From IMG/VR virus record IMGVR_UViG_2541047762_000007: a DNA stretch of 37,860 nucleotides, one strand, 5' to 3'. Shown in pieces: positions 1 through 27,025 of this stretch. The position numbers were made by a program, and so were the translations under genes. This DNA comes from a virus. Its lineage: Duplodnaviria > Heunggongvirae > Uroviricota > Caudoviricetes. The notes below the pieces were generated by a model, which ran no database searches, had not been told where the DNA came from, and worked only from the letters and a program-made list of their open reading frames with translations. Every line of letters starts with the position of its first letter. Position 1 is the stretch's first letter.

Positions 1-933
1 TTATGCCGCCAGCACGCGGTTGCGTCCATCATTTTTCGCCCGATACAAAGCATCATCAACGCGTTTAAACAGTTCATCGATGCTTTCATTTCCTTCGTGA
101 TGCGCCACACCAATGCTGACGGTAAAGCGTGGTAAGCCCGAAATACTCACTTTTGCCACGCTTACGCGGATAGTTTCAGCCAGCGAAAGCGCGGTATCCA
201 GTGGGGTTCTTGGTAGCAATAAGACAAACTCTTCGCCTCCCCAACGAAACACCAAATCGCCTTTGCGAGCGCAACTTTCGAGGGTGCGGGCGAGGGCGCA
301 TAACACCTCATCACCTTTAGAATGCCCATAGAGATCGTTAATGTGTTTAAAACGATCGGTGTCGATGAGCAATAAGCTGTAATCCTGAGCGATGGCGAGG
401 TGCTGCATTTGGCCTGGCTCGGTAATGTGGTAAAACTGTCGCCGATTCAGTAATCCGGTCATCGCGTCATGGTGGGCAGCATGTTCCAGCTGCTCCTCCA
501 GCCGTTTTTGCTCAGTAATATCATGCACAATACATAACATGAGCTTGTCGCCATAAATTTCAATCGGCCCAGCATAGGTCTGCACATGACGAGTCGAACC
601 ATCCGCCAGTTTATGAACAAAATTCAAAGGCTTATGGCCACCGGGTAAATGCGAAATTTCATGCATGATAGGCATGACGCGTCGCCCGAGCATATTTATT
701 TCCCAGGTATGTTTCTGGCACATCGTTTCATGGTTATAGCCATAGAAATTGAGCGCGGCGAGGTTAGCATCGACGATTTGGCCATCTCGTGAGGGGTCAA
801 TCAACAACATTGGTGCAGAGTTAGTCAGAAAAAAGCGCGCATAAAAACCTTGTTTTTTGCGCTGATAATTTGCCGAGCGACTGGCTTTTAAACCCAGCGT
901 TGCCGGTGCTTCGATACCTTCGAAAATAATCAC
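1..933 (-). CDS. PAS-GGDEF diguanylate cyclase (host gene; 5' end may be interrupted by prophage)
   Basis: Translation has the GGDEF active-site motif (RWGGEEF) and a PAS-like N-terminal region. Stop codon at 1..3. First codon is GTG at 931..933, and the frame stays open upstream to 982 with no ATG. Confidence 0.85.
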   Translation of the reverse strand: MIIFEGIEAPATLGLKASRSANYQRKKQGFYARFFLTNSAPMLLIDPSRDGQIVDANLAALNFYGYNHETMCQKHTWEINMLGRRVMPIMHEISHLPGGHKPLNFVHKLADGSTRHVQTYAGPIEIYGDKLMLCIVHDITEQKRLEEQLEHAAHHDAMTGLLNRRQFYHITEPGQMQHLAIAQDYSLLLIDTDRFKHINDLYGHSKGDEVLCALARTLESCARKGDLVFRWGGEEFVLLLPRTPLDTALSLAETIRVSVAKVSISGLPRFTVSIGVAHHEGNESIDELFKRVDDALYRAKNDGRNRVLAA

Positions 934-956
934 CGGTTCTGCTTCTGTCAGCTTTC

Positions 957-1003
957 TGATGCGCCGCGCGATAAATGCACTCTATCTTGTGCGATAAATG
1001 GCA
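957..1003. repeat. Putative prophage right terminus with transposase-binding repeats
   Basis: Sequence from 957 (TGATGCGCCGCGCGATAAATGCAC...) resembles the Mu R1/R2 end as I recall it (TGAAGCGGCGCACGAAAAACGC...CGATAAATGCG) and starts with TG. GCGATAAATG occurs twice, at 968..977 and 991..1000. Confidence 0.45.
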
Positions 1004-1034
1004 TCCACGCGGCGTTTCATTATTTGAAAAAGAA

Positions 1035-1607
1035 TTACATTTCAGGTTGCGTTATGACAGTCCCAACAGGGTGGTAGCGGTAGATCGTTGACAGTCCAAT
1101 ATCATAGATAATTGCCAGCCGCTTTCTGTCATACCCTTTCTGGAGCAATCTTGCGATCTGCTCATGCTGCTCCTTCGTCAGTTTCGGGCGACGTCCTCCA
1201 ACTCTCCCTTGTGCTCGCGCAGCAGCCAGTCCTGCCAGCGTGCGCTCAACTATCAGTTCACGCTCCATTTCTGCCAGTGCACCCATCATATGAAAAAAGA
1301 ACCTTCCCATCGGAGTGCTGGTATCGATTGAATCCGTCAGACTGCGAAAATTGACACCTTTTGCGCGTAGCTCTTCTGTGAGAGCAATGAGGTGTTTCAT
1401 TCTTCTACCCAACCGATCCAGCTTCCAGACCACCAATGTATCCCCTCTTTTAAGGCACTTTAAAGCGCGTTTCAGGCCTGGTCGTTCCGACTTGGTTCCG
1501 CTCATTTTGTCCTCAAAAATCTGTTCACATCCTGCGCACATTAATGCATTGCGTTGCAAATCTGTGTTTTGGTCATTTGTTGACACACGTATGTAGCCAA
1601 TCAGCAT
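1035..1607 (-). CDS. gin: Gin/Pin/Hin-family serine DNA invertase
   Basis: Translation from the ATG at 1607 (MLIGYIRVSTNDQNTDLQRNAL...GRRPKLT...) closely matches my recollection of Mu Gin and e14 Pin. The ORF-track start at 1736 is probably an upstream artefact. Confidence 0.9.
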   Translation of the reverse strand: MLIGYIRVSTNDQNTDLQRNALMCAGCEQIFEDKMSGTKSERPGLKRALKCLKRGDTLVVWKLDRLGRRMKHLIALTEELRAKGVNFRSLTDSIDTSTPMGRFFFHMMGALAEMERELIVERTLAGLAAARAQGRVGGRRPKLTKEQHEQIARLLQKGYDRKRLAIIYDIGLSTIYRYHPVGTVITQPEM

Positions 1608-1673: not shown

Positions 1674-1889
1674 TTGGTTTAGGAGAAGGCTCGGCGCTAC
1701 CCGTTGGTGTGCCTGTTCCGTGGCCCACCGCCACACCGCCAGCAGGCTGGTTAAAGTGCGACGGGCGCGCCTTTACAAAAGAACAATATCCTGTTCTGGC
1801 CAGAGTCTACCCGACCCTCCGTCTTCCCGATTTACGCGGTGAGTTTATCCGTGGATGGGACGACGGGCGCAAAGTTGATACAGGACGTA
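1674..1889. repeat. Left inverted repeat of invertible tail-fibre segment (gix-like site at 1664..1687)
   Basis: About 216 bp here is the near-identical reverse complement of 3061..3279. Its outer end (gagataaacgTTGGTTTAGGAGAA) resembles the Gin/Hin crossover half-site consensus. Confidence 0.7.
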
Positions 1890-2191
1890 AGTTGCTGTCC
1901 GCACAAGGGGCAACGCTGTTAAGAACAGCAATGCTGGATTATTATAACCAGGACACTACGGGAACCTCGGGGATAGTCGGCATGGGATTCAACAATGAAG
2001 ATTCCATTACAGACCTTCGTGAGGGCAGCTTTAAAATGCCGGACGGGACAACATTCAGCAATCCTGCCATGGCAATGTCAGACAATGGTATGCAGGCTAC
2101 TATTCTGACCTCTATCAGAAGCGGGTATGCGAAGGGTATCACTGTCAGACCCCGTAGCATTGCACTTAATTACATTGTGAGGGCAGTTTAA
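1709..2191 (+). CDS. Alternative tail-fibre C-terminal cassette (Sv'-like), promoterless in current orientation
   Basis: The first ~60 aa are nearly identical to the region of the 2812..4398 fibre that begins ~150 aa from its C-terminus (PVPWPTATPPAGWL...LRLPDLRGEFIRGWD), then diverge. It lies inside the invertible segment on the opposite strand. Confidence 0.7.
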   Translation: MPVPWPTATPPAGWLKCDGRAFTKEQYPVLARVYPTLRLPDLRGEFIRGWDDGRKVDTGRKLLSAQGATLLRTAMLDYYNQDTTGTSGIVGMGFNNEDSITDLREGSFKMPDGTTFSNPAMAMSDNGMQATILTSIRSGYAKGITVRPRSIALNYIVRAV

Positions 2192-2805
2192 TGAGTAACA
2201 CTGCAGTTCTGGATGAAAACGGTATCGCCACTGTAGCGGGCGATATCACTGTATATCACTATGACGAGGAAACCCGGGAATACACCTCATCCTCTGTGGA
2301 GTATCTCGCCCTTGGGGTGGGTACTCCGGCACATTCGTGCGCCGATGCACCGCCGGAAGCAATTTCGGGTTACGTGGTTTGCCGGACTGCCACGCTGAAC
2401 GGGTGGGAGCATGTGCCTGATCACCGCGGCGAGACGGTATACAGCACGGAGAACGGTAACCCCGTTCTGATTACCCAACCGGGTGATTACCCGGCGGACA
2501 CCACCACAAAACAGCCAGCCACGCCATGGGATACCTGGAACGGTGAGGCGTGGGTAACCGATACTGAACGGCAGCGAGCCGCAGAACTGGAGGTTGCCAG
2601 ACAGCAACGCCAGCAACGGGTGAAACAGGCGATGGCGTCCGTCGATCTTATCAACCTCAAACTGCGTGCTGGTCGCAGTCTGAAACCAGAAGAAACGGCA
2701 AAACTGAACGCCGTGCTGGATTATATCGACGAGCTGAACGCACTGGATATCAGCAAGGCACCTGAAATCAGCTGGCCGGAAGCGCCACTGGCGCTTGCCG
2801 GCTGA
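2191..2805 (+). CDS. Tail fibre assembly protein (Tfa/U-like)
   Basis: Position directly after the alternative fibre cassette (TAATG overlap), ~200 aa, composition typical of lambda Tfa / Mu U chaperones. Confidence 0.75.
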   Translation: MSNTAVLDENGIATVAGDITVYHYDEETREYTSSSVEYLALGVGTPAHSCADAPPEAISGYVVCRTATLNGWEHVPDHRGETVYSTENGNPVLITQPGDYPADTTTKQPATPWDTWNGEAWVTDTERQRAAELEVARQQRQQRVKQAMASVDLINLKLRAGRSLKPEETAKLNAVLDYIDELNALDISKAPEISWPEAPLALAG

Positions 2806-2811
2806 ACGGTA

Positions 2812-4398
2812 TCACGCCGCCCTCACGATATAGTTAAATGCGATATTGCGGGGGCGAGCTGATACATAAGCCCACCAGTCATATCTTTGTGCACCTTTAG
2901 AGGATGCATCAAATATCCACTTTTTGCCATTTATGACCCCCAGTTGATTAGAGGTTAAAGCGTCACCAAATCCGTATTGTGTAGAGCCGAGCGAACTGAT
3001 ATCTCCGGTATTATTATCATCAAAACCGGATACGATAGTCCCTTCCTGAAATGAAAGTACCGTACGCCCGGTATCAACCTTGCGACCACCGTCCCATCCA
3101 CGGATAAACTCACCGCGCAAATCGGGAAGACGGAGGGTCGGGTAGACTCTGGCCAGAACAGGATATTGTTCTTTGGTGAACGTAGCTCCGTTGCACTGTA
3201 ACCAGCCTGCTGGCGGTGTGGCGGTGGGCCATGGAACCGGTACACCAACAGGCAATGCAGAGCCTTCCCCCAAACCAAGGTAATTGAGGACATCTTTTAT
3301 ACTGCCCTTAGCGATAATAGCGCGACCAATAGCTGTAAGGGTTGCCAGCGCTGCGCGGTCTGCTCCGGTAAAATAAGGCAACCGATCTGCTGCAGTGGCA
3401 AGTCCTGCCAGAGCAGTGAGCGTGGCATCTGCCGGTTGTTTTCCGTTTGCCAGATCGTATGCAGCCTTGACGGCCTTTGGTGTGGCGGCCAGCGTTTCAG
3501 ACGTGCTGTTGATGGCGCTGCTCAATTGTACGGTGCCTTTTGCCGTCAGCGAGGCAGCAGGCACTCCCGTTATCTGACTCCACGGGTGAGTGTGGCTGAC
3601 GGGCGCCTTGCCGGCTGCAAGGTCGTATGCAGCCTTGACGGCCTTTGGTGTGGCGGCCAGCGTTTCAGACGTGCTGTTGATGGCGCTGCTCAATTGTACG
3701 GTGCCTTTTGCCGTCAGCGAGGCAGCAGGCACTCCCGTTATCTGACTCCACGGGTGAGTGTGGCTGACGGGCGCCTTGCCGGCTGCAAGGTCGTATGCAG
3801 CCTTGACGGCCTTTGGTGTGGCGGCCAGCGTTTCAGACGTGCTGTTGATGGCACTGCTCAGTTGTACGATCCCTTTACGGGTCGTTGTTGCATCCTGGGC
3901 TGTGTATTTTCCCCGGGCCAGATCATACGCGATTTTCACAGCCTTCGGCGTGGCAGCCTCAGTTTCTGATTGACTGTCCGTGGCACTGCTCAGCTGTACG
4001 GTGCCTTTTGCCGTCAGCGAGGCAGCAGGCACTCCCGTTATCTGACTCCACGGGTGAGTGTGACTGACGGGTGCCTTGCCGGCTGCAAGGTCGTATGCAG
4101 CCTTGACGGCTTTTGGTGTGGCGGCCAGCGTTTCAGAGGTGCTGTTGGTGGCACTGCTCAGTTGGGTGAACCCCTTAGCTGTCAGTGTCGCGTCCGGGTG
4201 GTTACGGGAACGTACGTGTTCAGCCAGTGACTGTGCGGCTTCCTCCGTTTTTTTCTTCAGCCATTTCGTCCTGTTTGCCAGTTGCCGGGGGGCTCGATTT
4301 GATATCCCGTCTGCACCACCCAGAACCGGATCTGATGTCTCCAGTTGATAGATATTTTCTTCCCACTTTTCTGTTTCATTCAGGTTTCCCATAATCAA
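2812..4398 (-). CDS. Tail fibre protein with internal tandem repeats
   Basis: 528-aa ORF with repeated fibre motifs (TAKGTVQLSSAxxSTSETLAATPKAVKAAYDLA, SHTHPW). C-terminal part lies inside the invertible segment. Position matches Mu S. Confidence 0.9.
   Translation of the reverse strand: MIMGNLNETEKWEENIYQLETSDPVLGGADGISNRAPRQLANRTKWLKKKTEEAAQSLAEHVRSRNHPDATLTAKGFTQLSSATNSTSETLAATPKAVKAAYDLAAGKAPVSHTHPWSQITGVPAASLTAKGTVQLSSATDSQSETEAATPKAVKIAYDLARGKYTAQDATTTRKGIVQLSSAINSTSETLAATPKAVKAAYDLAAGKAPVSHTHPWSQITGVPAASLTAKGTVQLSSAINSTSETLAATPKAVKAAYDLAAGKAPVSHTHPWSQITGVPAASLTAKGTVQLSSAINSTSETLAATPKAVKAAYDLANGKQPADATLTALAGLATAADRLPYFTGADRAALATLTAIGRAIIAKGSIKDVLNYLGLGEGSALPVGVPVPWPTATPPAGWLQCNGATFTKEQYPVLARVYPTLRLPDLRGEFIRGWDGGRKVDTGRTVLSFQEGTIVSGFDDNNTGDISSLGSTQYGFGDALTSNQLGVINGKKWIFDASSKGAQRYDWWAYVSARPRNIAFNYIVRAA
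3061..3290. repeat. Right inverted repeat of invertible tail-fibre segment (gix-like site at 3265..3290)
   Basis: Reverse complement matches 1674..1889. TTCCCCCAAACCAAGG at 3265..3280 is the inverted partner of the left site. Confidence 0.7.
3440..4200. repeat. 168-bp (56-aa) tandem repeats within tail fibre gene
   Basis: Three near-identical units are in register at ~3455, 3623 and 3791, followed by two more diverged units. The plus-strand shadow ORF 3436..3969 shows the same period. Confidence 0.85.
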
Positions 4399-9587: not shown

Positions 9588-12538
9588 CAGCGGTACTCCT
9601 TACGTTGTTTCTGAGCCAGCAGACGCTCCAGCATTTTTTCCAGCTCATGCAGACTCATATTCAGGGCACCAGTCAGTCCTGCAGGCGCTGTGGTTTCCCT
9701 GCCATTGAGGAAAAACTGAGGATTAAAGCTGACCTGGATACCACCAGACGTTCCACCGCCGGTTGCAGCTGCACCACGGCCTGAATATCCGGCAGCCAGG
9801 ATTTCAGGCGAGGGGATACGGGGAACATCCGGTGTCATCTCATTTGCCAGACGTTGCCCTGGTAAAATCGATGCCCGGGTGGAGAGCGGAATAGCGGGCA
9901 TGGAAGACAAACTATTGATTACGGATCCGATCGCATTTTTAGCAGACGACATAAACCCGTTGATATCGGGCAACGGCATACTGAAGCGAACACCTGAAGT
10001 GTTATCCCGTATTTCTGGCCCCTGAATGCTCACGGGCATTTTGGGGAGCAGTTCACTGACCATTCGCTGACCGGCCAGAGCTGCAAGCGGAGTGCTCCGC
10101 TGCAGGCCAATGGCGGCCCCCTGCGCGATATTGTCACCAAAGCCCATAAACACGCGGCTCGGCGAATGAATGCCCAGCTTTTCGCTGAACCAGCCACTGA
10201 TGCTGTCGCCCATTCCGGTTACGCTGGTTTTGAGTGACTCCCATTTGTTTTTGATACCGTTAATCAGACCGTCGACAAGATGGCCACCGAAGTCGGTGAA
10301 CTTTGCCGGCAGCTCAACGCCGAGATATTTCAGCGCAGCTGCAAAGGCTTTATAGAGCAGACCTGCCGGCGACCAGTTAATCAGCAGCTTACCAGTTCCC
10401 ACGATACCGCCGTTAAAGGCTTCCTGAATGTCAGCCCAGCGTTGTTTAAACCAGCTACTGATGCTGTCACCCATTCCGGTTACACTGGATTTGAGCGCCC
10501 CCCATTTGTTTTTGATACCGTTAATCAGACCGTCGATAAGATGGCCACCGAAGTCGGTGAACTTTGCCGGCAGAGCAACGCCGAAATATTTCAGCGCAGC
10601 CGCAAAGGCTTTATAGAGCAGGCCTGCCGGCGACCAGTTAATCAGCAACTTACCAATTCCCACAATGCCGCCGTTAAAGGCTTCCTGAATGTCAGCCCAG
10701 CGCTGTTTAAACCAGCCACTGACTGCCCCCCAGTTGCGGTAGATAAGGTAAGCTGCTGCCGCGACAGCGGTGATAACGAGACCGATGGGATTCATCATCA
10801 GCGCACGTCCAATCCAGAGAACAGCACGTCCGGCGAGCATAATTCCGCGAACCAGCCCCCCGGAGAGCACGCCACTCAGTGTTCTGGCTCCTCTGGCGAC
10901 GGCGCTAAATCCGGTCACCAGCCAGCGGAGCTTACCGCCTTGCCCCAGTGCGAGCGACAGACGAAGCCAGTTGGCCCGAAGTAAAACAGCATTTTTCCAG
11001 ACACTTACAAAGGGGGAAATAAGGAGATTCAGCCCCAGTTTGAGACCAACAGTCGCTATCTTAATCGCAAGGAGCGCACTGATGAGCTTAAAAGCCCCAC
11101 TGACAAATTGCGGGTGAGTCGCTACCCAGTGTTTTGTCCCCTGAATGAGTGGGAGCAAGTCCTGAGTCAGAGAAATAAAAGATGGAGCTAATTGATCGCC
11201 CAGCGTAATTGCCAGATCGCGACTGCTGACCATAAGTGCTTTAGTGGCTTCAAGGGGAGATTTCAGCCGCTGATCATAAGCACTGGCAAGCAAATCGTTA
11301 TCCGCAGCCCTGAGAGCACCGGCGCGGATCTCGCGATATCTGTCCATGTTGGCCAGCATCGGGCGGATAAATGCCATGACCTGCATATCCGCGAACATAT
11401 CACCCAGACCAAAGTTTTTCGCCAGAGCCTGAAGTGCCTCATCTCTTGCCGTATCATTCTTTATTTTCATGGCGGATTTGAAGCCGGCCAGCGCTTCGGG
11501 GCTTTTGGCATTGAGGTAACGTTCTATAACACTCAACATCCCTTCAATCGGAGAGATCCCCGCAGCCTTATAACTCGCAATAGATCCCTGCAAATCAATA
11601 CCCAGATCAGCAAACTGTTTCTGAGTATCGCGGGCAAAAATTTTGGTAAGAAAGTTTTTAAAATTATTGGCTGCCTCGTCGGTGGAACCTGCACCGATTT
11701 TTGCTATCTGGAGACTGGCCCCGATTTCAGCAACAGCCTCTTTTCCACTGGCAATACCCGCCATCATTGGGGCCAGGGACTGCATCCACTTGACCTGATC
11801 CGGGATTTCAAATGACCCCTGGTCACCGGCATAAGCCATAATATTCTGAACGGCACCAAAATCTCTGGCCGCACCTTTCAGGGAGTTTTGCCAGACTGCG
11901 GCCACTTTTGCCCAGTCCTGAGCAGACGTGCGTGTTGCCGTTGCCGCGCGGGCAATATCCGGCATCAGAAAACCGATATCTGACACATTATCAATATTGT
12001 CGCTGATGAGTGAACCCACCGCCTCCTGCAGCTCATCCTGATACTGATTGTATTTAAGCGCCCAGCCTTTTATCTGTCCGGCAAGTGCATCCCGCGTTTT
12101 ATTGTCATATTTTGCGGTGATCGACATATCAATCATTTTGTCCTGAAAAGACATGGACTGCTGAACGGCAGGGGAAACCGTATGATAAACAGTCTGTGCC
12201 ATGCCATACGCTTCAATCCCCTGACCATACAGCGCCATGCGGTTAGCTTTCAGCGCATCACTGGTAGCGGATGCCGCTGACAGACGGCGCTGCTGGCGCT
12301 CAATTTGCTCCATGGTGCGGCTTACCCGCAGCAGCTCGCTGTTGAGATGCTGCATCTGGGAAGAACCCAGTTGACCATAACGTTCTGTTGCACGGGTTAA
12401 AGCGTTCTGACGTTCCTGCAGGCGGCGTGAGGTATCGCTCAGGGAATCAAGCGCACGGCGGGTACCGCTCATTGCAGAACGGAATGTGCTGCCAATCATC
12501 CCGCCGATAACAACGCCGACTGAAAACTGTCCCGACAT
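9587..12538 (-). CDS. Tail tape measure protein
   Basis: 983 aa, helical N-terminus, hydrophobic central segment, located between chaperone and baseplate genes; contains an internal tandem duplication. Confidence 0.9.
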   Translation of the reverse strand: MSGQFSVGVVIGGMIGSTFRSAMSGTRRALDSLSDTSRRLQERQNALTRATERYGQLGSSQMQHLNSELLRVSRTMEQIERQQRRLSAASATSDALKANRMALYGQGIEAYGMAQTVYHTVSPAVQQSMSFQDKMIDMSITAKYDNKTRDALAGQIKGWALKYNQYQDELQEAVGSLISDNIDNVSDIGFLMPDIARAATATRTSAQDWAKVAAVWQNSLKGAARDFGAVQNIMAYAGDQGSFEIPDQVKWMQSLAPMMAGIASGKEAVAEIGASLQIAKIGAGSTDEAANNFKNFLTKIFARDTQKQFADLGIDLQGSIASYKAAGISPIEGMLSVIERYLNAKSPEALAGFKSAMKIKNDTARDEALQALAKNFGLGDMFADMQVMAFIRPMLANMDRYREIRAGALRAADNDLLASAYDQRLKSPLEATKALMVSSRDLAITLGDQLAPSFISLTQDLLPLIQGTKHWVATHPQFVSGAFKLISALLAIKIATVGLKLGLNLLISPFVSVWKNAVLLRANWLRLSLALGQGGKLRWLVTGFSAVARGARTLSGVLSGGLVRGIMLAGRAVLWIGRALMMNPIGLVITAVAAAAYLIYRNWGAVSGWFKQRWADIQEAFNGGIVGIGKLLINWSPAGLLYKAFAAALKYFGVALPAKFTDFGGHLIDGLINGIKNKWGALKSSVTGMGDSISSWFKQRWADIQEAFNGGIVGTGKLLINWSPAGLLYKAFAAALKYLGVELPAKFTDFGGHLVDGLINGIKNKWESLKTSVTGMGDSISGWFSEKLGIHSPSRVFMGFGDNIAQGAAIGLQRSTPLAALAGQRMVSELLPKMPVSIQGPEIRDNTSGVRFSMPLPDINGFMSSAKNAIGSVINSLSSMPAIPLSTRASILPGQRLANEMTPDVPRIPSPEILAAGYSGRGAAATGGGTSGGIQVSFNPQFFLNGRETTAPAGLTGALNMSLHELEKMLERLLAQKQRKEYR
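10190..10715. repeat. 261-bp tandem duplication inside tape measure gene
   Basis: CCAGC(C/T)ACTGA...TGCTGTC recurs at 10190, 10451 and 10712, in frame (87 aa). Two full copies of WFKQRWADIQEAFNGGIVG...SVTGMGDSIS appear in the protein. Confidence 0.85.
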
Positions 12539-12613
12539 AGTGGTTAACCTCCGGGGAAGGTGAAAAGACGTGAGGGGATAACGCAGAACAGCCGCTACTG
12601 GCGGCTGTCTGTA

Positions 12614-12871
12614 CTATGATTTGTCGCCGTACTCGCTTTTGATTTGCTCTTCAGCCTGCTCCAGCCACATCTCCAGATCGTCAGTATCGAGGGCATCAAT
12701 CTCCCCCGGCTGAAACCGGAACCATCTCGCCAGCAGCCCCTGCGCCTGCGTCAGCGCCCTGGTTGCTCTCACCCATCCCCGTGATGAGCTGAAATCGTTT
12801 CTGTAACTGCAGGTAATCAGCCAGATCCATATTGTCGAGATCTTCCGGGAGAAGACCAGTACTGCGGGCAA
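12614..12871 (-). CDS. Putative frameshift extension of tail assembly chaperone (GT-like C-terminal part)
   Basis: Open frame overlapping the 3' part of 12696..13031. Its distal part (EIDALDTDDLEMWLEQAEEQIKSEYGDKS) looks protein-like; its proximal part does not. Confidence 0.4.
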   Translation of the reverse strand: MPAVLVFSRKISTIWIWLITCSYRNDFSSSRGWVRATRALTQAQGLLARWFRFQPGEIDALDTDDLEMWLEQAEEQIKSEYGDKS

Positions 12872-13031
12872 TCAGCGGTTCGTCCCAGTCTGCCGGGTTT
12901 TTGCTGATTTTGCGCACCTGCTTCAGGTCTTTTACCGTCAGGCGTTTCAGTTCAACCTGCTCAATTCTGGTGCCTGCAGCAGTGGTGAAGGGATAAGACA
13001 ATTTAAAAGTATCGGATGGGGTCTGTGACAT
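12696..13031 (-). CDS. Tail assembly chaperone (G-like), candidate frameshift donor
   Basis: 111 aa directly upstream of the tape measure. A second ORF (12614..12871) overlaps in the +1 frame and ends just before the tape measure gene. Confidence 0.55.
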   Translation of the reverse strand: MSQTPSDTFKLSYPFTTAAGTRIEQVELKRLTVKDLKQVRKISKNPADWDEPLIARSTGLLPEDLDNMDLADYLQLQKRFQLITGMGESNQGADAGAGAAGEMVPVSAGGD

Positions 13032-13128
13032 GATTGTGCTCCTGTGTAAGTTCAGGGCAGTATGTCGGGAGAAGCGCGTGACGGATATTAAAGGAGATTA
13101 AGAAGAAGGGGCCGGAGCCCCTGTGATG

Positions 13129-24057: not shown

Positions 24058-24368
24058 TATTCACTCCAGTACTTTTCCGGGCGGGCAATACCCGGACCAC
24101 ATTCCACGGTGTATTCCACCAGGTCTACGCCGAGGCGGGTCAGGTCAGCAAACCAGTCGCCAGAAGGTTTTTTCTCCAGATCAACCATTTTACGGTCAGC
24201 CAGATAATCCAGTTCGCGGCGCAGTTCCAGCGGTGTGGTGTCCGGGTAGATGGCACGGGACACATCCAGCAGCAGCGTCTCGCTGGCGGTGTAAGGGCGG
24301 GTCTTGTTCAGGGCAACCAGCAGACTCCAGCGCAGGGATTCGCGGCGTACCCGGGTAATATCGACCAT
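24057..24368 (-). CDS. Hypothetical protein (Mu gp26-like position)
   Basis: 103-aa ORF coupled in the operon. Confidence 0.45.
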   Translation of the reverse strand: MVDITRVRRESLRWSLLVALNKTRPYTASETLLLDVSRAIYPDTTPLELRRELDYLADRKMVDLEKKPSGDWFADLTRLGVDLVEYTVECGPGIARPEKYWSE

Positions 24369-24694
24369 TATTGACCTCCGGTATTGCGGTACTGCTGTAC
24401 CACTTCCAGTTTGTTATAAAGCGCGTCCAGTTTGGCCTCAATGACTGTCTGGCCACGGATATAATCCTCTCGACGGACATAATTCAGCGGTAAATCCGCT
24501 TTAAATCGCATAAATTCTTTTTCCAGCTCGCCCCAGTTGGAGGCGGATTGTTGCAGGGCCTGTTCAAGGGAGGCGAATCGTGCCGCCTGGCGTTCTTCTG
24601 TTTTACTGAACAACCATTTGGCGAGCCCTCCCACAAACCCCATGAAGGTGAGCAGAAAACTCACCACCGTCCAGAATTCAACCTGCAGTGTCAT
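24368..24694 (-). CDS. Membrane-anchored protein (Mu gp25-like; possible lysis accessory)
   Basis: 108 aa, N-terminal transmembrane helix then coiled coil; directly downstream of the spanin gene. Confidence 0.5.
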   Translation of the reverse strand: MTLQVEFWTVVSFLLTFMGFVGGLAKWLFSKTEERQAARFASLEQALQQSASNWGELEKEFMRFKADLPLNYVRREDYIRGQTVIEAKLDALYNKLEVVQQYRNTGGQ

Positions 24695-25341
24695 TTCTGT
24701 AATCCTTCCCGTTCATCCAGTAACGCGTTTATCTGGTTCCGCCAGCGACGACATTGTCCTGCGTTGTCGATGATGTTGGCGAGAACGTCACGCTGGGAGA
24801 CACCCGAATCGCGTAACCGGGTGTCAGTGGTTTCAGGTTGCCCGGTCGCTGTGCCAGAGCGGGTGCCAGCGGCGGCAACTGAGTCTGAATGACCGGTGTC
24901 GACGGATGCGTTGTCATATCCGAGTGCGGCGTTGTACTGGCGCACGAAACCGCGAGTAAACACGCACTCAATGGGATGGCTCTTACCTTTTTCATCAATC
25001 CAGCGCTGTGTGACATCGTTAATTTGCCCCTGTAGTTGTTTATTCCGGCTCTCCAGTTGAGCAATCTGCTCAAGATAACCGGCTTCAGCCCGCTGCCCGG
25101 CGGCCACCTGCTCCTGATACCGTCTGGCCCAGGCCCGCAGCGCAGCATTCTCAAGCGTTGCCTGCTCCGTTTTGTACGCGTCAAATGCTGACTGCAACTG
25201 ACTGAGCGCGGTATCACCGTCACGCTTTGCAGAGTCATGACCACTTCTGTATCCCATGGCATACAGGCCGACCAGAAAGGCATTGATAAGAATGGCCAGC
25301 AGAATGCCGCGCCACGGCAGCTTTTTAACCAGATGCCACAC
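24691..25341 (-). CDS. i-spanin (Rz-like)
   Basis: N-terminal transmembrane segment (ILLAILINAFLVGLYAMGY), then coiled-coil periplasmic domain. Start assigned to the GTG at 25341 with GGAGG upstream; the ORF track extends further. Confidence 0.65.
   Translation of the reverse strand: MWHLVKKLPWRGILLAILINAFLVGLYAMGYRSGHDSAKRDGDTALSQLQSAFDAYKTEQATLENAALRAWARRYQEQVAAGQRAEAGYLEQIAQLESRNKQLQGQINDVTQRWIDEKGKSHPIECVFTRGFVRQYNAALGYDNASVDTGHSDSVAAAGTRSGTATGQPETTDTRLRDSGVSQRDVLANIIDNAGQCRRWRNQINALLDEREGLQK
24729..24995 (-). CDS. o-spanin (Rz1-like lipoprotein) embedded in i-spanin gene
   Basis: Alternate-frame ORF wholly inside the i-spanin gene: MKKVRAIPLSACLLAVSCAS has a lipoprotein signal and lipobox Cys, then a proline-rich mature region. 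Confidence 0.65.
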   Translation of the reverse strand: MKKVRAIPLSACLLAVSCASTTPHSDMTTHPSTPVIQTQLPPLAPALAQRPGNLKPLTPGYAIRVSPSVTFSPTSSTTQDNVVAGGTR

Positions 25342-26065
25342 AACTGCTGCCTCCCCATGTGAGATATCGCGGTGCCAGTTCGCGCAGGATGCGCTGCGGA
25401 TAATGGCGGTTCTCCCGCCAGCTGGCCGCATTGCGTCCGGCATTCACCGTGGCGACATGTCCGAACCAGCGGGTGCTGTCCAGACCTTTCTGTGATGCAA
25501 GCCGCCTGTCCCGTTGTACCCAGCCCAGACCACCGTTATAGCCCGACAGTGTCATGGCCATACGCTCGCAGTCACTGGCGGCGCTGACACGCTGCCACAG
25601 CCAGCGGTCATAGCTGACCAGCGCCCGGATAGCCCATGCCGGATTAAACGGCTCACGACTGCTCAGCATCGGTATCAACTGGCTTATCCAGTCGGCAGTG
25701 GCAGGCATGAACTGCGCCAGTCCCTGAGCGCCAGCCGGCGAGATCGCATCAGGTCGCCAGCCGCTTTCCTGATGCAGTTGCGCGGCGAAATCGGCCACCG
25801 GCGCAGACAGTCCCCATTCAAGCCGGGCATTACGGATCACATCATCGCGATACTGCAGCGCAGCCTGCGGAGGTTGTGCTGCGCATGCCTGGCTGAAAAA
25901 GCCGCCACACCAGAGCAACATTGCGACAAAGAATACCCATGCCATATGAACCAGAAAGGTCCCGGCGCGGACTGACAGGCGTTCGGTTCTGATGAAGACC
26001 CGAAAGGCTTCGAAAGCCAGTTTCAGGGACATGCATACAATCCAGGTGATCTGCGGCCAGTTCAT
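25325..26065 (-). CDS. Endolysin, lytic transglycosylase (SLT) type with N-terminal hydrophobic segment
   Basis: SLT catalytic motif (ESGWRPDAISPAGAQGLAQFMPATA) and an N-terminal hydrophobic stretch (MAWVFFVAMLLWCGGFF). Possible alternative start at 25945. Confidence 0.8.
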   Translation of the reverse strand: MNWPQITWIVCMSLKLAFEAFRVFIRTERLSVRAGTFLVHMAWVFFVAMLLWCGGFFSQACAAQPPQAALQYRDDVIRNARLEWGLSAPVADFAAQLHQESGWRPDAISPAGAQGLAQFMPATADWISQLIPMLSSREPFNPAWAIRALVSYDRWLWQRVSAASDCERMAMTLSGYNGGLGWVQRDRRLASQKGLDSTRWFGHVATVNAGRNAASWRENRHYPQRILRELAPRYLTWGGSSCVASG

Positions 26066-26067
26066 GA

Positions 26068-26418
26068 TTAAAGCCCCATCGCAACAGCCAGGCAGACCGC
26101 TGCAACAATCAGTGCACGGCGGATTAACGCAGCAGAAAACACCAGGTGAAGGCCGGTCTGTACCGGGAAACGCCCTTCAGCCATCAGCCTGTCGTCATGT
26201 TTCAGGTACTGACCGGGACGGGCTTTGGGGAAGAGCGAACGGTCAAGCCAGTAACCCAGCACTGCTGCCAGCGTGATGAGTGCCAGCTTGTAGATCACAA
26301 CAGGCAGCTGCTGTGGTGAGACCAGAGCGATGGTGCCCAGCAACAGCACTGAGGTCAGCAGCCAGCCGCTGAGGCGAGGTTTTTTAACAGGGGGAATGAA
26401 TTTTTTCAGGTTTTTCAT
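26068..26418 (-). CDS. Putative holin (three transmembrane segments)
   Basis: 116 aa from the ATG at 26418 (AAGGAGACACAC upstream), three hydrophobic helices, immediately upstream of endolysin. An in-frame upstream start at 26448/26451 is possible. Confidence 0.6.
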   Translation of the reverse strand: MKNLKKFIPPVKKPRLSGWLLTSVLLLGTIALVSPQQLPVVIYKLALITLAAVLGYWLDRSLFPKARPGQYLKHDDRLMAEGRFPVQTGLHLVFSAALIRRALIVAAVCLAVAMGL

Positions 26419-26548
26419 GTGTGTCTCCTTATCTGGTGGAGACAGCATCACAAATACAGGGCGCGAAGGATTTTAAAGCGCGTTAAGAGAGCCGGGGATA
26501 CGGGATGTGCAGGATAAACGATGAATTATTCACAGAGGAGAATACGAT

Positions 26549-27025
26549 ATGACGCAGACACTGAATCCGGTCATCACTGTCACCGTGTCCGGTCCTGTGG
26601 GCAGCGGTAAAAGTTACATATTGGCGCGGATAGAGGAAGTGGTGAAACAGGAATTCGGAAACAGCGTCATTGTCGATGCTGCTGACGTGGAGAATGAGCG
26701 CCGTATGAATGGCGAAGATCTGACGACCTGGCAGAAGCCACGGGGTGGCACAGTGATCAGGCTAGAGGAATACACGGGACAGGGCCTGTTGTCATACGGC
26801 GAGGAGCGTATCTGTCGGACGAATGAGCTGCTGGATGTTATATGCCCCACGGGCCGGCAACCCTGGATACTGCCCGATGCACTGCATGCCACCATTGCGG
26901 CACTGATGACAGTTTACGATCAGGAGCTGCTCATGAAGGAGTTACGTAAACTCACCGGTCAGCCAACAGAATGTTGTTCGTCTCCGAAGTACGGCAAACA
27001 GGAAAACGCCCCGGATAATCCTTAA
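26549..27025 (+). CDS. Small P-loop (Walker A) protein, unknown function
   Basis: 158 aa with GPVGSGKS Walker A and a possible Walker B (VIVDAAD). Strong SD (AGAGGAG); on the opposite strand to the late operon. Confidence 0.6.
   Translation: MTQTLNPVITVTVSGPVGSGKSYILARIEEVVKQEFGNSVIVDAADVENERRMNGEDLTTWQKPRGGTVIRLEEYTGQGLLSYGEERICRTNELLDVICPTGRQPWILPDALHATIAALMTVYDQELLMKELRKLTGQPTECCSSPKYGKQENAPDNP

Follow-up and report, generated by a model that had tools for sequence, protein, structure and literature searches.

The embedded two-component spanin architecture is reportedly defined by Summer (2007), and also by Kongari et al. (2018). Lambda Rz and Rz1 consist of 153 and 60 aa, respectively. 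In the lambda prototype, a short Pro-rich outer-membrane lipoprotein is paired with a type II membrane protein that has two helical segments in the periplasm, and Rz1 has Cys29 for an intermolecular disulfide (PMC6139136). Among curated systems, 507 of 528 pairs have one or more periplasmic Cys, in the i-spanin or the o-spanin, available for homotypic disulfides, and 124 of 526 o-spanins are devoid of Cys (PMC6139136). The same 2018 census, by Kongari et al., includes BcepMu among the embedded spanins and reports no family that combines embedded with overlapped members (PMC6139136).

BcepMu gp23 (Rz) and gp24 (Rz1) are located at 12513..13112 and 12820..13074 of NC_005882, and the GenBank text on gp24 reads "Rz1, out of frame, embedded proline-rich protein". 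Phage KS10 is described as having no recognisable Rz/Rz1 (PMC2628397). For the transposable phage Mu, a two-component spanin, gp23/gp23.1, follows the endolysin gene within the lysis region (Chamblee et al. 2022, PMC9239132); this phage has no holin and uses the gp25 releasin (DUF2730) (PMC9239132).

The locus described here belongs to a viral DNA stretch of 37,860 nucleotides (IMG/VR record IMGVR_UViG_2541047762_000007), hereafter the window, which over the lysis region shares 99.6% identity with PhiKM, an Escherichia phage that has been isolated and is classed as a Bcepmuvirus. All features given below lie on the minus strand. Taking the evidence together, it is very probable that the prophage lysis cassette has, as its last functional unit, an embedded two-component spanin of the BcepMu family.

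The lysis cassette and the i-spanin

The cassette is arranged in the order holin, SLT endolysin, spanins, with the i-spanin gene as the last one; holin and endolysin thus stand immediately upstream of the spanins on the same strand. The holin (26068..26451) matches PF13272 Holin_2-3 (E=1.5e-41) and phrog_1528 holin (E=7.5e-55); these coordinates are those of the maximal ORF, and RefSeq and PhiKM annotate a 351-nt version. The endolysin, an SLT lytic transglycosylase (25325..26065; PF01464 SLT, E=1.8e-14; phrog_669 endolysin, E=8.8e-69), displays hydrophobic N-terminal segments, and the 3' end of its gene overlaps the i-spanin start by 17 nt.

The i-spanin gene (24691..25341) comprises 216 codons and begins with GTG, with a Shine-Dalgarno sequence, GGGGAGG, 8 nt upstream. 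Its 216-aa product matches phrog_1403 "Rz-like spanin" (E=6.8e-92), and this family search, together with the position in the lysis cassette, identifies the gene as a putative spanin gene. Neither the i-spanin nor the embedded o-spanin gives a Pfam match above the curated cut-off, and hence neither matches a lambda spanin family.

A transmembrane helix is predicted near the N-terminus of the i-spanin, at approximately residues 12-30 (nt ~25252..25308), where the best 19-aa Kyte-Doolittle window, of 2.15, is also found. The AF2 model, obtained from single-sequence input and of modest confidence (pLDDT 64), has helices at residues 10-118 and 183-215, and the pLDDT falls below 50 at residues 121-179, roughly the linker. 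As modelled, the protein would be of the type II inner-membrane kind, with a single N-terminal transmembrane domain (TMD) and a mostly helical periplasmic part. Two periplasmic cysteines are present, Cys126, which is part of an invariant CVFTRGFVR motif, and Cys197; it is through these that the pair contains at least one periplasmic Cys.

The embedded frame and its conservation

Inside the i-spanin gene, a second ORF, at 24729..24995, encodes the candidate o-spanin, an 88-aa prolipoprotein, as judged by ORF geometry, the lipobox rule, conservation and homology with BcepMu gp24. It runs from ATG to TAA in frame +1 relative to the i-spanin, its first base being i-spanin base 347 (0-based offset 346), and its stop lies 38 nt ahead of the i-spanin stop, so that it is wholly contained in that gene. 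The first-pass annotation had placed an alternate-frame ORF here, entirely within the i-spanin gene, and its coordinates are exact. It had also described a lipoprotein signal with a lipobox Cys followed by a proline-rich region, a description with which the predictions agree. The precursor reads MKKVRAIPLSACLLAVS followed by CAS, with a Pro/Ser/Thr-rich mature part, and the product, MKKVRAIPLSACLLAVSC followed by ASTT, satisfies a PROSITE PS51257-type prolipoprotein rule with Cys at residue 18 (match PLSACLLAVSC). The predicted signal peptide, MKKVRAIPLSACLLAVS, and the lipobox Cys18 together occupy 24942..24995, with 24942..24944 as the Cys codon. Within the lipobox, A-V-S-C, Ala stands at position -3, where L, V or I is usual. 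The mature protein would comprise 71 aa, including 11 Pro, 20 Ser+Thr and zero further Cys; its residue +2 is Ala, not Asp, and among homologues it is Ala in 49 of 50 and Val in one.

An alternative lipobox, the LSAC string with Cys12, was considered and rejected. Cys18 is preferred as the lipidation site because the 11-residue signal implied by Cys12 would be too short; furthermore, Cys18 aligns with the lipobox of BcepMu gp24. The lipobox was judged by a permissive pattern that 16 of 1270 start-to-stop candidate ORFs in the window also satisfy, and after this window-wide control the pattern by itself was rejected as evidence. Another stretch of the i-spanin +1 frame, opposite the i-spanin TMD, is among the ORFs that pass the rule.

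Beyond the signal peptide, the o-spanin can be divided into a Pro-rich conserved core, residues 19-64 (24804..24941, with the sequence ...QLPPLAPALAQRPGNLKPLTPGYA), in which codon-position diversity and substitution classes show constraint on the o-frame, and a C-terminal tail, residues 65-88 plus the stop (24729..24803), which largely overlaps the i-spanin C-terminal helix. The tail ends in SPTSSTTQDNVVAGGTR, and the 88-aa product contains no hydrophobic C-terminal segment of the kind that characterizes a unimolecular spanin (T1 gp11 type). The Shine-Dalgarno sequence before ATG 24995 is poor (TGGA, at 3-nt spacing). Profile searches with the embedded ORF matched nothing in PHROGs, Pfam or NCBIfam; embedded genes are seldom called and are therefore poorly represented in profile libraries.

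Conservation was examined in 50 distinct full-length 651-nt homologues, with i-spanin identities of 71-100%. The embedded ATG, the lipobox Cys and the TAA are retained in all 50, with no internal stops, and every homologue satisfies the lipobox rule (AVSC in 47, AASC in 3). Absence of a predicted lipobox together with a lack of conservation of the embedded frame in homologues had been named in advance as an outcome that would refute the proposal; instead, the frame is kept throughout. Over the same overlap, the +2 frame contains 4-8 stops. ORF length and lipobox alone do not exceed chance expectation, and it is conservation that places the embedded ORF well beyond it. The mean pairwise identity is 0.957 for the o-spanin signal peptide, and 0.746 for the tail, where the overlapping segment of the i-spanin reaches 0.91.

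The wholly embedded position holds in all enterobacterial homologues, and the +1-frame lipoprotein itself is found in all intact distant homologues, persisting at i-spanin identities of 27-43% across several bacterial orders; Photorhabdus, Pseudomonas, Burkholderia and Ralstonia are represented. A +1-frame lipoprotein bearing the RP...LTP.Y motif occurs at every one of the 60 intact genome loci, which come from Enterobacterales, Photorhabdus, Pseudomonas, Burkholderia, Cupriavidus and others, and such a lipoprotein is likewise present in B3, RS138 and one faecal phage contig. The fuller form of the o-spanin motif, L(L/K)(K/R)RP....LTP.Y, is common to BcepMu, B3, RS138 and the genome loci.

The substitution pattern shows that the embedded frame is under purifying selection of its own over o-spanin codons 1-64. 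For changes that are synonymous for the i-spanin and nonsynonymous in the +1 frame, acceptance is 0.67 upstream versus 0.20 in these codons (Fisher p=2e-18). Among i-nonsynonymous changes in codons 1-64, acceptance is about three times higher for those that are silent in the +1 frame (p=3e-7), and the same comparison in the upstream control region gives p=0.14. Within the Pro-rich core, diversity is highest at i-frame position 1, which corresponds to o-frame position 3. In codons 65-88, selection on the o-frame was sought and none was detectable (Fisher p=0.46); there, the diversity at i-frame positions 1/2/3 is 0.059/0.068/0.189, and the i-spanin frame dominates. The coding load is divided between the two frames: the o-spanin core is mostly opposite the poorly ordered i-spanin linker, and the variable o-spanin tail is opposite the conserved i-spanin C-terminal helix. 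The nucleotides of the signal peptide and lipobox specify, in the i-spanin frame, the invariant CVFTRGFVR motif, and both products are highly conserved over this segment.

The prophage is common in E. coli: 637 of 5426 complete genomes of this species contain its i-spanin gene. A protein search for o-spanin homologues yielded 6 proteins in all, most of them longer ORFs that had been mis-called; by this measure the o-spanin gene is essentially unannotated, and the search gave no clue to function. Three annotated records were inspected, those of PhiKM, KP12 and a RefSeq E. coli chromosome: each labels the i-spanin "lipoprotein" and has no entry for the o-spanin. This hides the actual lipoprotein and makes the lysis cassette seem incomplete. 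The embedded arrangement is already annotated in BcepMu, and what is new is only this annotation gap in records of BcepMu-like E. coli prophages. The current picture of spanin action is unchanged and the value of the finding lies mainly in annotation; at the same time, a well-sampled spanin family is obtained in which the dual-frame constraint is measurable.

Alternative readings and proposed working

In the window, the +1 frame runs for 203 codons without a stop, far beyond the proposed gene. This length is compatible with an open frame that arose by chance in G+C-rich coding sequence and bears an accidental lipobox-like string, which would leave the i-spanin to act alone or with a partner encoded elsewhere; so are the 16 window ORFs that pass the lipobox rule, with one of them opposite the TMD in this very frame, and the lack of a profile-library match for the embedded ORF. 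Such a reading is nevertheless close to refuted, and we consider it extremely improbable, as the 88 codons remain open in all 50 homologues, versus the stops that interrupt the +1 frame upstream of the embedded ORF in 42 of the 50, the substitution signal is confined to codons 1-64 and absent from the control region, the ORF and the annotated BcepMu Rz1 are homologues, and the lipoprotein persists in distant homologues of several bacterial orders. A separated architecture, in which the embedded ORF is irrelevant and the o-spanin partner is the product of the downstream gene (24368..24694), is likewise extremely improbable. This gene encodes a 108-aa membrane protein (phrog_462, E=1.6e-36), the equivalent of BcepMu gp25, and is translationally coupled to the i-spanin stop through an ATGA overlap; phrog_462 is labelled "lipoprotein" in PHROGs, as are the B3 and BcepMu equivalents in RefSeq. 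However, the N-terminus, MTLQVEFWTVVSFLLTFMGFVGGLAKWLFSK, is a plain transmembrane helix, and because this region contains no Cys, a lipobox is impossible and the gene was rejected as the lipoprotein partner. Moreover, the record note on BcepMu gp25 is "putative inner membrane protein", and a separated architecture would offer no explanation for the selection seen on the embedded frame. The same gene was also considered as a Mu gp25-type releasin (DUF2730) and rejected, with no significant Pfam match, even at E ≤ 10; BcepMu gp25 likewise lacks a DUF2730 or other Pfam match at E ≤ 10. The downstream gene and Mu gp25 are alike in position and topology only.

If the embedded gene is taken as real, its boundary might still be slightly different from that of the first-pass annotation, with the start at the in-frame ATG 25016 (95 aa, MSHSAGLMKKVR...) or at TTG 24998. 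The ATG at -21 (25016) is kept in all 50 homologues, none of which has a stop between 25016 and 24995, but it may be kept merely through the conserved i-spanin segment DVTQRWIDEKGK. Shine-Dalgarno sequences are weak at both candidate starts and the BcepMu gp24 record uses a GTG further upstream, whereas ATG 24995 gives a canonical n-region (MKKVR) with an 18-residue signal and aligns with an internal Met of BcepMu gp24 (MRLFR...). An upstream start is thus rather unlikely, and the mature lipoprotein is identical with any of these starts.

With the embedded lipoprotein starting at ATG 24995 as the o-spanin, the pair may be expected to work as follows. The o-spanin would be translated from an ATG of its own, in frame +1, on the mRNA that also encodes the i-spanin, and, following lambda Rz/Rz1 biology, its precursor would undergo Sec export, lipidation at Cys18 and cleavage by signal peptidase II. 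In E. coli, Asp at position +2 of a mature lipoprotein is the signal for Lol avoidance. The absence of Asp at this position points to outer-membrane sorting; because residue +2 is Ala instead, the Lol system would, in line with established spanin biology, carry the o-spanin to the inner leaflet of the outer membrane. By analogy with described spanins, the Pro-rich periplasmic part would bind the C-terminal part of the i-spanin, and the complex would span the periplasm through the peptidoglycan meshwork. It is probably stabilised by homotypic disulfides, formed solely by Cys126 and Cys197 of the i-spanin, as Cys is absent from the mature o-spanin. Once holin and SLT endolysin have removed the peptidoglycan, the complexes would be free to move and collapse, and this collapse would fuse the inner and outer membranes, completing lysis.

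Comparison with BcepMu, B3, Mu and lambda

In pairwise BLASTP, the i-spanin is 32% identical to BcepMu gp23 over 118 aa (E=1e-10), and the o-spanin is 39% identical to gp24 over 56 aa (E=1e-5). BcepMu failed the 1e-3 cut-off in a database-wide tblastn, and the relationship therefore appears to be distant. Judged by sequence, the spanin pair belongs to the BcepMu/B3 family. In the curated spanin census, the homologous BcepMu pair is classed as embedded (PMC6139136). BcepMu and the window share the +1-frame embedded o-spanin, with its stop exactly 38 nt before the i-spanin stop, the gene order holin, SLT endolysin, spanins, gp25-like membrane protein, gp26, TerS, and the motifs CVFT.GFVR (i-spanin) and RP...PL.PGYA (o-spanin). 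They differ in that sequence identity is low and the window i-spanin is 17 aa longer than gp23, with a longer linker; the BcepMu lipobox is LSAC, as against AVSC in the window. The cysteines are also reversed: in BcepMu, the mature o-spanin has a periplasmic Cys (MVCPRP) and the i-spanin lacks a second one. The family also includes a clade in which the periplasmic Cys of the o-spanin has been lost and the i-spanin has a second Cys.

Pseudomonas phage B3 has an i-spanin, ORF27, homologous to that of the window (33% identity, E ~1e-7), a +1-frame lipoprotein with the same motif, and the same transposable-phage lysis cassette. B3-like o-spanins carry 1-4 periplasmic Cys, unlike the mature o-spanin of the window, and in B3 and some 18 Pseudomonas loci the o-spanin ORF extends 7-19 nt past the i-spanin stop and is thus "overlapped" rather than embedded. 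In embedded members (enterobacterial, Burkholderia, some Pseudomonas or Stutzerimonas), to which these B3-like loci are closely related, the o-spanin stop lies 23-92 nt before that of the i-spanin; the contrast is exemplified by loci L102 and L112 (-38) versus L100 and L111 (+16). We tentatively suggest, as a possibility somewhat short of probable, that the BcepMu/B3 family mixes embedded and overlapped architectures and so provides natural intermediates of embedding. If this were true, it would bear on how embedding arises, and the family would show a split of the constraint between frames, with o-spanin core set against i-spanin linker and o-spanin tail against i-spanin C-terminal helix.

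Mu is similar to the window in having a small N-terminally anchored membrane protein slightly further downstream of the spanins; the window differs from it by the presence of a Holin_2-3 holin and by a protein in the gp25 position without a DUF2730 match.

With respect to lambda, the first-pass annotation had termed the arrangement "lambda Rz/Rz1-type", which is correct for the architecture and not for the sequence family, as neither protein is above the Pfam cut-off and no sequence relationship is detectable by that measure. The window proteins (216 and 88 aa) are larger than Rz and Rz1, the mature o-spanin lacks a counterpart of Cys29 of Rz1, and the endolysin, an SLT transglycosylase with hydrophobic N-terminal segments, is a further difference from lambda. 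The protein plan of the lambda pair nevertheless matches that of the window pair, and both systems place the spanins at the end of the cassette, with the o-spanin lipoprotein encoded in frame +1 and entirely contained in the i-spanin gene.

Lysis cassette and embedded reading frame

A BcepMu-like transposable prophage makes up the window, whose segment 24300..26500 shares 99.6% identity with Escherichia phage PhiKM, classified as Bcepmuvirus, and 87-88% with Klebsiella phage KP12 and Escherichia phage Phi06_2974 B. The lysis genes form a compact minus-strand cassette comprising a Holin_2-3 holin (26068..26451; PF13272, E=1.5e-41; phrog_1528), an SLT lytic transglycosylase endolysin (25325..26065; PF01464; phrog_669) and the 216-codon i-spanin gene (24691..25341), a full-length match to phrog_1403 'Rz-like spanin' (E=6.8e-92). 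The latter begins at a GTG preceded by GGGGAGG, its start overlaps the endolysin 3' end by 17 nt, and an ATGA overlap joins its stop to the ATG start of the following gene. Within the N-terminal ~65 residues of the endolysin, two apparent hydrophobic stretches are followed by ...FFSQACA|AQPP, an AxA-like site; the BcepMu endolysin, gp22, is ~40 aa shorter, and judging from its sequence the window's enzyme may be of the SAR or signal-anchored type, or else be translated from a start further downstream. Just past the holin, on the plus strand, the gene for a 158-aa P-loop protein (26549..27025; GPVGSGKS) shows weak AAA-type matches (best E=0.003) and bears the RefSeq name 'ABC transporter ATPase'; in PhiKM the corresponding position is taken by another, longer gene, and the window's gene is possibly a moron or an accessory gene.

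The embedded o-spanin ORF (24729..24995, minus strand; 88 codons) opens at base 347 of the i-spanin gene, in its +1 frame, with ATG at 24995 and TAA at 24729. With its end 38 nt short of the i-spanin stop, it lies wholly inside that gene, exactly where the first-pass annotation had placed it. The product, MKKVRAIPLSACLLAVSC|ASTTPHSDMTTHPSTPVIQTQLPPLAPALAQRPGNLKPLTPGYAIRVSPSVTFSPTSSTTQDNVVAGGTR, passes a PROSITE PS51257-type prolipoprotein rule at Cys18, and its 71 mature residues include 11 Pro and 20 Ser/Thr, which bears out the lipobox Cys and proline-rich region attributed to it. Position +2 is Ala, compatible with outer-membrane sorting under the established E. coli Lol rule. Three candidate starts are in frame (ATG 24995, ATG 25016 and TTG 24998), all with poor SD sequences; initiation at ATG 25016 or TTG 24998 is improbable, as ATG 24995 yields a canonical n-region and aligns with the internal Met of BcepMu gp24 (Rz1). 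The mature o-spanin is identical whichever start is used.

Conservation and selection on the two frames

ORF length and lipobox alone are not more than chance: the +1 frame is open over 203 codons in the window, and 16 of its 1270 start-to-stop candidates satisfy the same prolipoprotein rule in a six-frame control. The conservation and substitution data rule out a chance origin. An IMG/VR scan recovered 69 loci, with 50 distinct full-length (651-nt) alleles at i-spanin identities of 71-100%. The embedded frame claimed by the first-pass annotation is conserved in these homologues, with ATG, lipobox Cys, TAA and an unbroken 88-codon frame retained in 50/50 alleles (lipobox AVSC in 47, AASC in 3), while the +2 frame contains 4-8 stops inside the overlap. 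The sole exception is a 594-nt allele (locus L069, also L087 from Mixta mediterraneensis), a decayed copy given its lipobox Cys to Tyr change and truncated i-spanin. Decayed copies were also seen in Enterobacter asburiae, where all but the 3' third of the gene is gone, and in E. coli 510016, where IS100 cuts the prophage immediately past the gp26-like gene and IS1 does so on the far side of the holin. The +1 frame (24729..25358, minus strand) contains another lipobox-like string (…PFLSMPFWSAC) opposite the i-spanin TMD, upstream of the o-spanin; it is a chance match, since +1-frame stops upstream of the o-spanin ATG in 42 of the 50 homologues argue against translation continuing from it.

Upstream of the overlap, diversity at i-spanin codon positions 1/2/3 is 0.178/0.118/0.302, with the usual third-position maximum. 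Over o-spanin codons 1-64 it becomes 0.129/0.035/0.059, the maximum having shifted to i-frame position 1, which corresponds to third positions in the embedded frame, and over codons 65-88 (0.059/0.068/0.189) the i-spanin frame dominates again. Substitution counts, in which distinct variants were compared with every possible single-base change (Fisher), agree with this pattern. Changes synonymous in the i-spanin but nonsynonymous in the +1 frame reach 149/223 upstream vs 29/142 in codons 1-64 (p=2e-18). Among i-nonsynonymous changes in codons 1-64, 45/155 are found when +1-silent vs 26/278 when +1-nonsynonymous (p=3e-7); the corresponding upstream control is 72/222 vs 156/575 (p=0.14). In codons 65-88, no separate o-frame selection is detectable (9/66 vs 10/104, p=0.46). 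Mean pairwise amino acid identities are consistent with these results, falling in the o-spanin from 0.957 (signal) to 0.899 (core, residues 19-64) and 0.746 (tail), and rising in the i-spanin from 0.775 (N-terminal part) to 0.855 over the o-core and 0.910 over the o-tail.

Shared DNA, cysteines and proposed function

AF2 modelling of the i-spanin from a single sequence, with modest confidence (pLDDT 64), predicts that residues 10-118 form one unbroken helix (TMD and periplasmic helix) and residues 183-215 a C-terminal helix; the segment between them, 121-179, is of low confidence. In this model, the Pro-rich conserved o-spanin core is mostly opposite the poorly ordered linker and the variable tail opposite the conserved C-terminal helix, a predicted layout that fits the published view that embedded genes are placed where the host frame tolerates change (PMC6139136). 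The bases encoding the o-spanin signal peptide and lipobox also encode the i-spanin motif C126-VFTRGFVR, conserved and mostly invariant in distant homologues.

Because the mature o-spanin has no further Cys, any stabilising homotypic disulfides must lie in the i-spanin (Cys126, Cys197). Such a combination is common in curated spanins, 124/526 o-spanins having no periplasmic Cys (PMC6139136). Comparison of the window with loci L078-L139 revealed a periplasmic Cys ~8-15 residues past the lipid Cys in the o-spanins of nearly all Pseudomonas, Burkholderia, Photorhabdus and Ralstonia homologues; this residue is absent throughout the enterobacterial clade, to which the window belongs and in which every i-spanin has a second Cys (Cys197) within its C-terminal helix. 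In L090 the o-spanin Cys has been lost and the second i-spanin Cys is present; both are missing only in L095. This pattern, drawn from few independent events, is compatible with a requirement for a disulfide close to where the i- and o-spanin meet.

The analysis establishes two overlapping genes, encoding a membrane-anchored helical protein and a conserved prolipoprotein under selection, in a lysis-cassette context. By analogy with lambda Rz/Rz1 (PMC6139136 and general knowledge), the o-spanin precursor would be exported by Sec, lipidated at Cys18, cut by signal peptidase II and carried to the outer membrane by Lol. By binding the C-terminal part of the i-spanin, it would form a periplasm-spanning complex that, once the endolysin has removed the peptidoglycan, would fuse the inner and outer membranes. 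The next gene (24368..24694, minus strand; 108 aa, N-terminal TMD; phrog_462), ATGA-coupled to the i-spanin stop and equivalent to BcepMu gp25, was considered as the o-spanin partner owing to its 'lipoprotein' PHROG family and ruled out, its N-terminus being a Cys-free transmembrane helix; the label is a mislabel. Its product is similar to the Mu gp25 releasin in topology and in lying just downstream of the spanins (PMC9239132), with no match to DUF2730 or other Pfam families.

Annotation, distribution and relatives

In practical terms, the finding exposes a gap in annotation. Of 5426 complete E. coli genomes, 637 contain the i-spanin gene, and in the one RefSeq E. coli chromosome inspected it is WP_000264664.1, 'lipoprotein', with the o-spanin uncalled. 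In PhiKM and KP12 the i-spanin is a 'putative lipoprotein' and the o-spanin is unannotated; 'lipoprotein' is also the feature name on E. coli i-spanin matches, among the matches listed. The positions concerned by this mislabelling are 24691..25341 in the window and, in homologous loci, 632..1282 (L001), 3391..4044 (L002) and 2501..3151 (L077).

With the i-spanin as query, tblastn recovered 51 Pseudomonas (B3-like) and 5 Ralstonia phage records at 27-33% identity, and a +1-frame lipoprotein with the motif RP...PL.PGYA is present in B3, RS138 and a human-faecal phage contig. Scanning one bacterial genome per species yielded 62 loci (Pantoea, Erwinia, Mixta, Photorhabdus, Pseudomonas, Stutzerimonas, Burkholderia, Cupriavidus, Thauera, Paludibacterium and others), and all 60 intact ones encode a +1-frame lipoprotein. 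After a hand check of seven loci missed by the lipoprotein pattern, 42 proved embedded and 18 have an o-spanin extending 7-19 nt past the i-spanin stop. Phage B3 (L074; o-spanin ORF 1730..2074, i-spanin stop 2067) and ~18 Pseudomonas loci (among L097-L131), ending 7-19 nt beyond that stop, are strictly 'overlapped'; in L102 and L112, which are closely related to them, the o-spanin is embedded (-38). B3 is given as embedded in the 2018 spanin census, which reports no family mixing embedded and overlapped members (PMC6139136).

The first-pass annotation is right both in what it observed and in how it interpreted it, with the lambda type holding for architecture only: neither protein has a Pfam match above cut-off, hence neither matches a lambda spanin family. 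BcepMu has the same gene order, and its record NC_005882 lists gp23 as Rz (12513..13112) and gp24 as 'Rz1, out of frame, embedded proline-rich protein' (12820..13074). Pairwise BLASTP aligned the i-spanin with gp23 at 32% identity over 118 aa (E=1e-10) and the o-spanin with gp24 at 39% over 56 aa (E=1e-5), with RP...PL.PGYA in common. Kongari et al. 2018 place (BcepMu, phiE255) and (B3, JBD25, JBD18, JBD67) among the embedded spanin families (PMC6139136). The finding is an ordinary one: the window pair is orthologous to the embedded Rz/Rz1 spanins of BcepMu and has gone unannotated, and gp24, like the window o-spanin, ends 38 nt before the Rz stop.
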